Part shown: positions 26,905-42,865 of the stretch, in pieces
How positions within the stretch are numbered: position 1 is the stretch's first letter
Layout: every line of letters begins with the position of its first letter
Sequence record: PQ416618.1
Source of the DNA: Escherichia phage vB_VIPECOMC06
Length of the DNA: 64,000 nucleotides
Direction: 5' to 3' (one strand)
Position numbers and translations under genes: made by a program
Notes under the pieces: model-generated
The model's input: only the letters and a program-made list of their open reading frames with translations
The model's database searches: none
Told to the model about the DNA's origin: nothing

Positions 26905-26976
26905 GGCCCTGTAGCTCAATGGGAGAGCTGTCAGCTCATAACTGATAGGTAGCTGGATCGAAACCAGCCAGGGCCA
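26905..26976 (+). tRNA. tRNA with CAU anticodon (Met or lysidine-modified Ile)
   Basis: Cloverleaf readable by eye: acceptor GGCCCTG/CAGGGCC, D-arm GCTC-AATGGGA-GAGC, anticodon stem GTCAG/CTGAT with loop CTCATAA, T-arm GCTGG-ATCGAAA-CCAGC, discriminator A; no encoded CCA. Confidence 0.8.
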
Positions 26977-39892: not shown

Positions 39893-40351
39893 ATGACTAT
39901 CAATTCTGACGTTTTTATCCGCCGTAATAAACTCCGTCGAATCTTTGAAACGGAGTTCCGCAAAATAAATGCCGGTATAAAAGATGCTGCAAAGTCTCTT
40001 GGAATACCAGGCTTTCATATCAAGTATTCTCAACATCTCTTAGATCGTGCTATCCAGAGAGAAATAGATGAGAACTACGTTTTTGAATTATTTCGTAAAG
40101 TAAAAAATCATGTTAAAGAAGTTGCAGAATTTTTATCAATGCCGGCACGTCCAGATGTTGATGAAGATTTTGTCGAAGGTGTTGAATATCGCCCAGGCCG
40201 TTTAGAAATAACTGACGGAAATCTTTGGTTAGGACTTACAGTTTGTCGCGAAAATCCAGCATTCAAAATGAAGACTCTTCAATGCAGAATGGCTATTATT
40301 AACAGTAAACGACTACCAGGAAAAGCTTCTAAAGCAGTGATTAAAATCTAG
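39893..40351 (+). CDS. regB: RegB site-specific endoribonuclease
   Basis: 152 aa; MTINSDVFIRRNKLRR...KYSQHLLDRAIQREIDENYVFELF...GVEYRPGRLEITDGNLWLG...LQCRMAIINSKRLPGKASKAVIK matches T4 RegB. Confidence 0.93.
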   Translation: MTINSDVFIRRNKLRRIFETEFRKINAGIKDAAKSLGIPGFHIKYSQHLLDRAIQREIDENYVFELFRKVKNHVKEVAEFLSMPARPDVDEDFVEGVEYRPGRLEITDGNLWLGLTVCRENPAFKMKTLQCRMAIINSKRLPGKASKAVIKI

Positions 40352-40359
40352 AGGTAAAC

Positions 40360-40902
40360 ATGAGAAAAGCACTACTCGCTGGTCTATTTGCTCTTTCATT
40401 ATCAGCACATAGCTCCGAGCATACTTTTAGTAATGTCCAACTCGATAACTTGAATTATGCTTATCAGTTTGGGGAACAGTTTTCTAAGGACGGAAAATTT
40501 AAAACGCATGAAAATATGCATAAGAAAGGACTTGGATACATAATGGCCGCAATACTATGGCAGGAATCATCTGCCGGTATTAATCTTAAAGATAAGAAAG
40601 GTCACCATGCGTATGGAATGTTCCAAAATTATCTACCAACAATGAGGGCAAGAATTAACCAGCTTGGTTATAATATGACTGATGCCCAAATTAAGAAAAT
40701 GCTATCTAAGCGGTCTAATTCAGCCAGATGGGCTTATATCGAATTTTCTTATTGGTTAAATATACATAACGGGGATATAAGAAAAGCTATATCCTCATAT
40801 AATGCGGGATGGAAGACGAGTGCTGGAAGTAAATATGCTTCTGAAGTCCTAGAAAAGGCTAATTACCTTAAATCAAACAAACTACTGGAAATAAAAGAAT
40901 GA
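40360..40902 (+). CDS. Secreted protein, possible lytic-transglycosylase-like
   Basis: 180 aa; N-terminal signal peptide MRKALLAGLFALSLSAHS; WQESS...YGMFQ resembles the SLT E-S / G-(L/M)-x-Q motif. Confidence 0.4.
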   Translation: MRKALLAGLFALSLSAHSSEHTFSNVQLDNLNYAYQFGEQFSKDGKFKTHENMHKKGLGYIMAAILWQESSAGINLKDKKGHHAYGMFQNYLPTMRARINQLGYNMTDAQIKKMLSKRSNSARWAYIEFSYWLNIHNGDIRKAISSYNAGWKTSAGSKYASEVLEKANYLKSNKLLEIKE

Positions 40903-41246
40903 CCAAAATGTTGGCTTTAATAGTTGGCTTGGTTTCATTTAACGCTCTTGCTAATACTACATATACTGATGTAACGGAGTATACAAACAGAACAGCGTCT
41001 GATTATTGTGGTAAAAGTCAAGAGTGTAAAGTAGATTTTTCACAAAAATTGTTATATGCGTATAAAGACGGAGAAAAAGATGGGGCGTCTAGTAGGTTCA
41101 AGGCGTCTACCTTAATTAAAAGATACTATAAAAAATGGCAAATATTAGAATGCTCGGTGGCGGAACCTAAAGATAAGGCAGCATGCAATTCTATGGTGGA
41201 CCGTCTAGTTGACTCTTATACTAGAGGACTTGCAGCAAGTGATTAA
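40899..41246 (+). CDS. Secreted/periplasmic hypothetical protein
   Basis: 115 aa; signal peptide MTKMLALIVGLVSFNALA; four Cys. Confidence 0.45.
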   Translation: MTKMLALIVGLVSFNALANTTYTDVTEYTNRTASDYCGKSQECKVDFSQKLLYAYKDGEKDGASSRFKASTLIKRYYKKWQILECSVAEPKDKAACNSMVDRLVDSYTRGLAASD

Positions 41247-41706
41247 AAACTATATCAAGGGCGATATTGTCGCCCTGTTTTCTAAAGGTAATAATATTGC
41301 TCATGGGTGTAATTGTTTTCATACAATGGGCGCTGGTGTGGCAGGACAATTAGCAAAGGCTTATCCAAAAATTCTAGAAGCCGATAAACTTCAAACCGAA
41401 TTCGGAGACGAGTCTAAACTCGGGACTTATTCGGTTTATGAAAAATATTTTAAGACCCATAAAGCTTATTGCTTTAATCTTTATACACAGTTTGAGCCTG
41501 GACCTAATTTTGAGTACTATGCTTTAATGAATTGTATAATAGAATTAAATGAATTCGGAAAGAATAAGATAACAAAGCCTGTAATTTATATGCCAAGAAT
41601 TGGTGCAGGTATCGGTGGCGGAAACTGGGATGTCATCGAAGAGATTTTAGATACGTATTCCACTAAACTAGAAATTGTGATTGTTGATTGGGAACCATTA
41701 TTATGA
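41209..41706 (+). CDS. Macro-domain protein (Poa1/ADP-ribose-1''-phosphate phosphatase-like), non-ATG start
   Basis: KGDIVALFSKGNNIAHGCNCFHTMGAGVAGQLAKAYP resembles the Poa1 macro motif ([25 protein letters not shown]); no in-frame ATG before this motif, so the start is TTG 41209 or GTG 41239 (GAGGA SD 10 nt upstream of the GTG). Confidence 0.6.
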   Translation: MTLILEDLQQVIKNYIKGDIVALFSKGNNIAHGCNCFHTMGAGVAGQLAKAYPKILEADKLQTEFGDESKLGTYSVYEKYFKTHKAYCFNLYTQFEPGPNFEYYALMNCIIELNEFGKNKITKPVIYMPRIGAGIGGGNWDVIEEILDTYSTKLEIVIVDWEPLL

Positions 41707-41915
41707 ATATACATTATCCACATCCATATGACCCAAAGAATAAGGCAGTAATTATTCGTCAATGGGAACGCATTTGTCGTACCAAATGTCCAATTAATAG
41801 TCCACACGATGTAGATAAAGACTACATCGGAACATTCGTTGAATATACCTTTATTGATAAGAAAGGCCGTAAACAACATGTAGAAGAATACTGCTTAAAG
41901 GTGACATGGCTATGA
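41703..41915 (+). CDS. Hypothetical Cys-containing protein
   Basis: 70 aa from MNIHYPHP; ATGA overlap with the macro-domain ORF stop. Confidence 0.4.
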   Translation: MNIHYPHPYDPKNKAVIIRQWERICRTKCPINSPHDVDKDYIGTFVEYTFIDKKGRKQHVEEYCLKVTWL

Positions 41916-42097: not shown

Positions 42098-42291
42098 TTA
42101 CTCGCAAACAAAAGAACGAAATATTATTTTTAGTTAGTGAAATTGTTAGTTTAGAAAAGGATTTGTCTTTTGAAATATCTTCTGAATACGGAGATGCCGA
42201 AACATATTACGAATTAGTAAAATCTATCGATAAAGCTGAAAATGATTTAGAAACATATTTAGAAAATTTAACTAAGGACTCTTATGGCTAG
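42094..42291 (+). CDS. Hypothetical small helical protein
   Basis: 65 aa. Confidence 0.4.
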   Translation: MITRKQKNEILFLVSEIVSLEKDLSFEISSEYGDAETYYELVKSIDKAENDLETYLENLTKDSYG

Positions 42292-42865
42292 TTTAATTTT
42301 TACATATGCCGCTATGAACGCTGGTAAATCTGCTTCATTACTTACTGCCGCACATAACTATAAAGAACGTGGCATGGGTGTATTAGTTCTTAAACCGGCT
42401 ATTGATACTCGCGATTCAAAAGGTGAAATAGTCTCTCGTATTGGTATTCGTCAGGACGCCAATATAATTACAAAAGACATGGATATCTTTGAATTCTATA
42501 AATGGGCTGCAGCACAAAAGGATATTCATTGTGTATTTGTTGACGAAGCTCAGTTTTTAACTACTGAAAAGGTGTATCAACTTAGTCGTATTGTTGACGT
42601 ATACAATGTGCCGGTAATGGCATATGGACTACGAACAGATTTTAAAGGTAATTTATTTGAAGGTTCTCAAGCATTAATGGCTATTGCCGATAAACTTGTT
42701 GAACTTAAAGGTGTCTGTCATTGCGGTAAAAAGGCCACAATGGTAGCTAGAGTCACGGAAGATGGACTTCCAATTACAGACGGCAGTCAAATTGAAATTG
42801 GTGATACTGATAGATATGTGTCATTATGCCGGAAGCATTGGAATGATTTGACAGGGTTGTTATAA
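42284..42865 (+). CDS. tk: Thymidine kinase
   Basis: 193 aa (same as T4 Tk); P-loop AMNAGKSASLL, VFVDEAQF, C-terminal CHCGKKA...C zinc motif. Confidence 0.93.
   Translation: MASLIFTYAAMNAGKSASLLTAAHNYKERGMGVLVLKPAIDTRDSKGEIVSRIGIRQDANIITKDMDIFEFYKWAAAQKDIHCVFVDEAQFLTTEKVYQLSRIVDVYNVPVMAYGLRTDFKGNLFEGSQALMAIADKLVELKGVCHCGKKATMVARVTEDGLPITDGSQIEIGDTDRYVSLCRKHWNDLTGLL

Follow-up and report, generated by a model that had tools for sequence, protein, structure and literature searches.

What does a stand-alone macrodomain protein do for a phage, and is the gene that encodes it a new one? The question is raised by an open reading frame (ORF) at 41209-41706 on the + strand of PQ416618.1, a stretch of 64,000 nucleotides from Escherichia phage vB_VIPECOMC06 that is referred to below, at its full length, as the window. 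The open frame is present, and its translation includes GDIVALFSKGNNIAHGCNCFHTMGAGVAGQLAKAYP, the motif that had led a sequence-only reading of this DNA to present a Poa1-like macro-domain gene. Protein identity and gene order identify the frame as T4 tk.4 in its Mosigvirus orthologous form, a gene recently renamed adfM, and its product is likely to act in counter-defence against the host DarTG2 system. The gene itself is placed as follows.

41239-41706, + strand: tk.4/adfM ortholog, a stand-alone macrodomain protein of 155 amino acids, read from GTG to a TGA stop codon (identity to T4 Tk.4, Pfam, PHROG, AlphaFold2 (AF2) model, annotation of relatives).

Over 2.6 kb centred on this locus, many Escherichia Mosigvirus genomes match at 97-99% identity, AV112, HX01 and moskry among them. 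The window, 98% identical to Mosigvirus genomes, is Mosigvirus (RB69/HX01-like) DNA. The encoded protein shares 130 of 155 residues (84%) with T4 Tk.4 (NP_049723.1) over its full length and without gaps (E = 8e-104). The gene order regB, vs.1, vs, tk.4, tk.3, tk.2, tk.1, tk is identical in the window and in T4. The assignment as the Mosigvirus tk.4 ortholog is made because of this gapless full-length identity together with the shared place between vs and tk.3. The gene is already known: T4 annotations have carried it for two decades, related GenBank records label it, and it is annotated in hundreds of phage genomes. In T4, where tk.4 likewise lies between vs and tk.3, it is annotated as ‘phosphatase; contains A1pp phosphatase motif’. 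The ORF is called ‘macro domain protein’ in moskry and ‘phosphatase’ in RefSeq HX01, both starting at the equivalent of 41239, and the JGI name for homologs is ‘O-acetyl-ADP-ribose deacetylase’. What had been put forward as a Poa1-like macro-domain gene is thus T4 tk.4, annotated for years and now adfM.

That the product is a macro-domain protein, as the sequence-only reading had it, is borne out by the Pfam Macro score and by the predicted fold. The match to Macro (PF01661) reaches 27.4 bits (E = 3.4e-6), where the cut-off is 22, and is far beyond chance; the same family is matched by 62 of 64 family members; the 155-residue protein also matches PHROG 335 (E = 2e-66). The structure prediction that had been proposed as a check was run with AF2 on a 64-sequence alignment, and the model scored 95.9 for the predicted local distance difference test and 0.91 for the predicted template modelling (TM) score. 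The predicted fold is a macrodomain, with three alpha/beta/alpha layers and a central mixed sheet as in solved macrodomains. In comparisons with a set that included Poa1, DarG and TARG1, the structure comparison values were 18.1 for BT1257, 17.6 for Poa1p, 17.1 for M. tuberculosis DarG, 16.6 for both TARG1 and Thermosipho DarTG, and at most 13.7 for coronavirus, PARP and MacroD macrodomains. The nearest structural neighbours are of the ALC1-like (TARG1-DarG-SCO6735-Poa1) class, and macrodomains of the MacroD type or from viruses follow at a clear distance. Foldseek returned the same neighbour set, with TARG1 as the best match and SCO6735 at TM 0.71.

Searches of the PDB gave E values, with the single sequence and with the family profile respectively, of 1.6e-10 and 1.2e-17 for BT1257, 1.7e-8 and 1e-13 for Poa1, 8e-5 and 1e-15 for SCO6735, 8.5e-4 and 7e-13 for DarG, and 1.2e-3 and 1e-16 for TARG1. 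The impression ‘Poa1-like’ was a reasonable one from sequence alone, and the H-x-C-N-C motif is indeed common to Poa1. By family profile, however, Poa1 comes out no nearer than TARG1, DarG or SCO6735, and the protein's Gln84 agrees with SCO6735 and BT1257, where Poa1 has Ser. It is more accurate to assign the protein to the TARG1/DarG/SCO6735/Poa1 (‘ALC1-like’) class, with BT1257 as its closest solved relative.

The residues that would bind and process ADP-ribose fall into three segments.

41302-41349, + strand: loop 1, the ADP-ribose-binding motif H22-G-C-N25-C-F-H-T-M-G-A-G-V-A-G-Q37 (conservation, hhalign).
41476-41490, + strand: N80-L-Y-T-Q84, where the central beta strand ends (HMMER to TARG1, hhalign to DarG).
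41593-41628, + strand: loop 2, the diphosphate-binding glycine-rich loop P119-R-I-G-A-G-I-G-G-G-N-W130 (conservation).

The residues G23, N25, G33, A35, D49, G62, N80, Y82, T83, Q84, P119, I121, G122, G124 and W130 are invariant in 63 homologs with identities as low as 37%. A wider set of 157 fetched relatives (80 bacterial and 77 viral) keeps H22, N25, D49, N80, Y82, T83, Q84 and W130 in almost all members, and every one of them is intact here. Both glycine-rich ADP-ribose loops, M30-G-A-G33 and G122-A-G-I-G-G-G128, are present and conserved, and the loop-2 sequence PRIGAGIGGGNW is close to that of SCO6735, PRIGCGLAGGTW, and to that of BT1257. Position 84 is Gln in all 80 bacterial relatives and in 74 of the 77 viral ones. 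A viral contig of ~164.7 kb carries the sole family member with Lys at this position (L129:1501-1956, motif NLYTK), a DarG/TARG1-type residue in a Tk.4-type scaffold that offers a natural test of whether Gln and Lys are interchangeable.

HMMER profile alignment places Q84 opposite the catalytic K84 of TARG1 (N-L-Y-T-Q84 against Y-L-I-T-K84), and the second catalytic residue of TARG1, D125, is replaced by G126. When the family was aligned by hhalign with a DarG-type alignment of T. aquaticus, M. tuberculosis, Thermosipho and PhiKZ gp104, N25 fell opposite DarG N22 and Q84 opposite DarG K80, with a probability of 98.8%. These two methods were used instead of a MAFFT alignment with BT1257, TARG1, DarG, PhiKZ gp104 and Poa1 fragments, which shifted the central strand by 1-2 residues. 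In DarG, N22A is impaired and K80A, at the equivalent of the TARG1 catalytic lysine, is inactive (PMC5179494). SCO6735 is a hydrolase of thymidine-linked ADP-ribose on DNA; its Gln85 corresponds to the TARG1 and DarG catalytic lysines, and Q85A is inactive (PMC9411070). The equivalence of Tk.4 Q84 and SCO6735 Q85 is transitive via TARG1 and DarG; a direct PDB search with the C-terminal 96 residues aligned loop 2 alone. Because K84 and K80 are replaced by Q84, and D125 by G126, the family that we call NxYTQ is without the DarG/TARG1 nucleophile. If the protein removes DarT2 marks, it would most likely do so by SCO6735-type, lysine-independent chemistry.

What links the gene to DarT2 is genetics in T4. 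A T4 transposon library grown on a DarTG2 host gave tk.4 as the single significant hit, and a clean tk.4 knockout sensitised T4 to DarTG2, for which the gene was named adfM (bioRxiv 10.1101/2025.11.20.689424). In our literature search this preprint was the only source that linked tk.4 to DarT. T-even phages resist DarTG2 independently of AdfN (PMC11825919). Another phage protein that was also named AdfM, the DarG2-like gp104 of PhiKZ, carries N23 and K78 and removes DarT2 marks from an oligonucleotide in vitro (Cell Reports 2026; PMC13309987).

By orthology with T4 tk.4, we consider it likely that the Mosigvirus tk.4/adfM ortholog serves counter-defence by removing DarT2-installed ADP-ribose from thymidines of phage DNA, and we infer the same anti-DarTG2 phenotype for it. 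In the proposed mechanism, the host DarT2 toxin would move ADP-ribose from NAD+ onto thymidines of single-stranded phage DNA, and the Tk.4/AdfM ortholog would bind the ADP-ribose in its glycine-rich cleft. Hydrolysis of the N-glycosidic bond between ribose and thymine would then restore replicable DNA. Catalysis would probably proceed without the lysine nucleophile of DarG and TARG1, with Q84 in its place as in SCO6735, whose Gln is indispensable and, in the proposed mechanism, positions the distal ribose so that an activated water can attack it.

Several points weigh against this assignment. The DarTG2 phenotype is known from T4 and not from Mosigvirus, and de-ADP-ribosylation of DNA by the Tk.4 family is assigned through orthology rather than through biochemistry. 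The authors of the preprint, a single source that is not yet peer reviewed, propose enzymatic removal of ADP-ribose from DNA as something that only ‘seems likely’ (10.1101/2025.11.20.689424). The essential catalytic Lys of DarG is absent here, so that DarG-like chemistry cannot simply be assumed. The scores against DarG models are low: 30.4 bits for the NCBIfam DarG equivalog NF048014, with a cut-off of 250, and 31.8 bits for the PADLOC DarG model, which gives 132.9 for PhiKZ gp104. The DarG model is matched at positions 4-146 of 338 only, where the two-domain DarG is ~330-340 amino acids long, and by these measures the window protein is not a member of the DarG family. In the single-sequence search Poa1, a small-molecule ADP-ribose-1''-phosphate phosphatase, matches better than DarG. 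Finally, SCO6735 also inhibits DarT by direct binding, and protection could thus be partly non-catalytic (PMC9411070). The uncertainty that remains is biochemical, as it concerns the substrate, the Gln-based mechanism and catalysis versus binding; the identity of the gene is settled.

In one alternative the protein is a Poa1-like small-molecule enzyme, an ADP-ribose-1''-phosphate phosphatase and/or an O-acetyl-ADP-ribose deacetylase that deals with the by-products of RNA repair, tRNA splicing or sirtuins. The common H-x-C-N-C motif includes Poa1 H23 and N26, Poa1 S30 corresponds to T29 here, and the ‘phosphatase’ label of T4 and RefSeq, which goes back to the historical A1pp motif, and the JGI deacetylase name point the same way. 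Poa1 nevertheless has Ser against the invariant Gln84 and Phe152 against Gly126, and the C-terminal half of the protein matches Poa1 weakly, at ~10 bits. Weak A1pp phosphatase activity in vitro is common among macrodomains and physiologically meaningless. The T4 Pnkp/Rnl1 tRNA repair pathway is not known to leave a 2'-phosphate, and neither Appr>p nor Appr-1''-p would be expected from such repair. The sole recorded phenotype of the gene is sensitivity to DarTG2, and we regard a Poa1-like role as unlikely.

Removal of the DNA mark by catalysis also has to be weighed against protection that is mainly non-catalytic, through binding and inhibition of DarT2 or shielding of ADP-ribosylated sites, in the manner of the inhibition by interaction known for DarG and SCO6735. 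Although its catalysis is abolished, SCO6735 Q85A remains an efficient inhibitor of DarT in vitro (PMC9411070), and the catalytic Lys of DarG and TARG1 is absent from the Tk.4-type protein. On the other hand, the isolated DarG macrodomain with K80A fails to inhibit DarT (PMC5179494), and the 155-residue protein is without the C-terminal DarT-binding domain of DarG. The putative active site (H22, N25, Q84, glycine loops) is kept strictly in phage and in bacterial relatives that have no DarT nearby, which argues for an enzyme, and we regard protection mainly by binding as improbable.

T4-like phages encode ADP-ribosyltransferases. Alt and Mod modify arginine, and the ALC1-like macrodomain class is not known to cleave the Arg-ADP-ribose linkage. 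A role in reversing or tuning the phage's own ADP-ribosylation of host proteins or RNA by Alt, ModA and ModB, or in degrading immune signals (Thoeris gcADPR, His-ADPR), is very improbable: a survey suggests that phage Macro domains may prefer soluble ADP-ribose derivatives of host immunity (PMC9503650) and 2 of the 64 family members show a marginal match to the Pfam ThsA_Macro family, but those two matches have E = 0.002, the arginine linkage lies outside what the class is known to cleave, the T4 phenotype is specific to DarTG2, and experimental or contextual links are lacking at a locus whose neighbours are vs and tk.3 and no transferase.

Erasure of ADP-ribose marks is the one of the three functions offered by the sequence-only reading that has evidence behind it, in that T4 needs tk.4 against DarTG2 (10.1101/2025.11.20.689424); nothing supports the degradation of immune signals or the processing of tRNA-splicing and repair by-products.

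Homologs were found by tblastn in 2,790 of 50,697 phage records, and the carriers include T4-like, rV5-like and Felix O1-like phages, Ackermannviridae, and Pseudomonas and Vibrio myoviruses. A pattern scan with one genome per species yielded 373 bacterial relatives, of which 80 were kept, mostly stand-alone ORFs of 140-180 amino acids. Their neighbours are heterogeneous housekeeping genes. In a crude survey, limited to the longest ORF found in the 1.2 kb to either side, DarT was not among the 25 Pfam families listed, out of 83, beside the 80 bacterial homologs, and no family occurred more than 3 times in 100 flanking ORFs. No DarT gene is present at the locus in the window, where the neighbours are vs and tk.3. 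Descent from an orphaned DarG antitoxin was considered and is unsupported for the Tk.4 branch, as this survey showed neither DarT among the families listed nor a recurrent partner beside the bacterial homologs. From these neighbourhoods, the Tk.4 branch looks more like a protective enzyme that stands on its own than like an antitoxin orphaned of its toxin.

The start of the gene and its overlaps with its neighbours were examined next to those of relatives.

41224-41228, + strand: Shine-Dalgarno (SD) sequence GAGGA, 10 nt before GTG 41239 (read from sequence).
41239-41241, + strand: GTG start codon, homologous to the ATG of T4, ECO07P1, EcS1 and CC31.
40899-41246, + strand: vs (‘valyl-tRNA synthetase modifier’; PHROG 1256, E = 5e-35; annotation of relatives).
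41703-41915, + strand: tk.3 (DUF7202; Pfam E = 2e-38; relatives start at the equivalent of 41703).

The sequence-only reading had allowed a start at TTG 41209 or at GTG 41239, on the ground that no in-frame ATG precedes the motif. The latter is correct, the earliest Met codon being the M within HTMGAG, and the GAGGA that it had placed 10 nt before the GTG is there. The codon homologous to this GTG is ATG in T4, ECO07P1, EcS1 and CC31, with a similar GAGGA before it, and in T4 an in-frame TAG directly upstream of this ATG makes an N-terminal extension of Tk.4 impossible. The choice of a non-ATG start thus holds, and so does the GTG, by the annotation of relatives and by homology to T4. The TTG was rejected: it would add 10 codons inside vs, relatives annotate the GTG, and T4 has its ATG there with the upstream TAG. 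On these comparisons the tk.4 start is GTG 41239 and the protein has 155 residues, not 165.

Of 59 viral loci that align from residue 1, 53 start with ATG and 5 with GTG, the latter being three Mosigvirus copies and two unrelated lineages. GTG was found in every Mosigvirus copy examined (L001, L002 and L088-L090), and the GTG start is in itself unremarkable. The change from ATG to GTG arose in at least three lineages, namely Mosigvirus, a CC31-like/Karamvirus-like contig and an rV5-like contig (contigs L108 and L131), and the SD sequence is retained in each lineage with a GTG start. The vs stop codon TAA (41244-41246) overlaps the tk.4 start over 8 nt (GTGATTAA), and the tk.4 stop overlaps the tk.3 ATG in the ATGA at 41703-41706. 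Such overlapping stops and starts are typical of translationally coupled T4 early genes.

Shortly after the start codon the coding sequence contains a hairpin.

41258-41283, + strand: terminator-like hairpin in codons 7-13, with an 8-bp GC-rich stem and a T-tract (consensus scan).

The stem, at 41258-41276, reads AGGGCGAT-ATT-GTCGCCCT and is followed by GTTTTCT, with the codons specifying K-G-D-I-V-A-L-F-S; its folding energy is -13 kcal/mol. The hairpin uses codons that are in the minority in the long ORFs of the window (AAG 0.24, GGC 0.18, GTC 0.13, GCC 0.14, CTG 0.08). The same hairpin is found in T4 and in other T-even-like phages. The rV5-like version is GGGAGAT-TTG-ATCTCCC, in which the Ala codon is changed to Ser and the pairing is preserved. 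When 17 sequences with the hairpin were compared, pairing held in 98.5% of cells, against 35-66% in slid controls, and two pairs were changed on both sides in a compensatory way, figures that are optimistic as this subset was picked after the hairpin had been seen. The hairpin is absent from 27 of 45 distinct sequences; CC31-like phages and several other lineages are without it.

In the T-even-like and rV5-like groups the hairpin lies ~20-45 nt beyond the stop of the co-directional upstream gene, and the annotation of Yersinia phage fPS-2 has a ‘terminator’ at the same spot and places an early promoter towards the gene's 3' end. An Rfam scan of the window returned no family that covers the tk.4 hairpin. 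The element probably serves the upstream gene as an intrinsic terminator or attenuator, in which case expression of tk.4 would depend on read-through; vs transcripts may end there, or transcription that runs on into tk.4 may be attenuated. As a separate observation, a sigma-70-like match (TTGTGA, 18 nt, TATTAT) lies at 41675-41704 (+), at the 3' end of tk.4 and just upstream of the tk.3 start, the same relative position as the predicted early promoter of fPS-2; the scan as a whole was not enriched over shuffles.

The remaining genes around tk.4 are as follows.

39893-40351: regB, upstream of tk.4.
40360-40902: vs.1, with a weak SLT-like match below the Pfam cut-off.
42284-42865: tk, with two small ORFs between tk.3 and tk.

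The gene had been described as lying between regB and tk beside two signal-peptide proteins, and this is what we find, the two neighbours being vs.1 and vs. The N-terminus of the vs protein, MTKMLALIVGLVSFNALA, resembles a cleavable signal peptide, and that of vs.1, MRKALLAGLFALSLSAHS, is similar. Secretion of the vs product would be hard to square with a role in modifying a synthetase of the cytoplasm. According to the HIDEN-SEQ preprint, no T4 gene is more depleted in minimal medium than vs. Elsewhere in the 64-kb window, a tRNA-Met (CAT) at 26905-26976 (+) is the sole tRNA or Rfam match.

Taken further, these observations allow a more specific proposal, which we advance tentatively and rate somewhat below an even chance. 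T4-type AdfM would be a lysine-independent, Gln84-dependent DNA thymidine de-ADP-ribosylase like SCO6735, distinct in mechanism from DarG and from PhiKZ AdfM; the stand-alone ‘NxYTQ’ family to which it belongs would span ~5% of sequenced phage genomes and many bacteria that have no DarT partner for it, and its expression in T-even-like and rV5-like phages would be gated by the terminator hairpin in codons 7-13. Mosigvirus (RB69/HX01-like) phages are predicted to be naturally resistant to DarTG2, which bears on the choice or engineering of therapeutic phages. If thymidine-linked ADP-ribose is truly removed, this would be done through the less understood chemistry of the SCO6735 type.

Among the named systems that the protein can be compared with, Poa1p (yeast, PDB 6LFQ) is a eukaryotic small-molecule enzyme. 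It differs in the Ser at the Gln84 position, in Phe152 at the Gly126 position and in a long insertion before loop 2, and its C-terminal half is barely alignable. Of the residues mutated in the Poa1 structures, H23 is kept (H22), S30 is conservatively replaced (T29) and F152 is not kept (G126). BT1257 (Bacteroides thetaiotaomicron, PDB 2FG1/2AFC) is an uncharacterised structural-genomics target and is uninformative on function. TARG1/OARD1 (human, PDB 4J5S) is of the same class and of similar size, with K84 and D125 where the window protein has Q84 and G126; PMC8501950 reports that TARG1 likewise removes thymidine-linked ADP-ribose.

DarG (T. aquaticus 5M31/5M3E, M. tuberculosis 5M3I) has K80, a C-terminal DarT-binding domain and a DarT partner, whereas the Tk.4 type has neither the domain nor the partner and carries Gln84. 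The name ‘AdfM’ was given by different groups to the DarG-like PhiKZ gp104 (K78) and to the NxYTQ-type T4 Tk.4. BLASTP of the window protein with PhiKZ gp104 (L007:22518-23006) aligned 23 residues only, and because of this short match and the PADLOC DarG scores the two AdfM proteins are placed in different macrodomain branches. If Tk.4 does remove the DarT2 mark, the two would represent independent recruitments of different branches by phages.

The Streptomyces coelicolor protein SCO6735 (PDB 5E3B) resembles the Tk.4 type in being stand-alone, ~150-160 amino acids long, of the same class and without an adjacent DarT. SCO6735 Q85 and Tk.4 Q84 both lie at the position of the TARG1/DarG catalytic Lys, and the loop PRIG[CA]G[LI][AG]GG.W is near-identical. 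It differs in its low sequence similarity (phmmer E = 8e-5) and in being cellular and SOS-regulated, not viral. T4 Tk.4 has the same flanking genes, start codon position, SD sequence and 5' hairpin as the gene in the window; it starts with ATG and overlaps the vs stop by 4 nt (ATGA), whereas the Mosigvirus gene starts with GTG and overlaps it by 8 nt (GTGATTAA).

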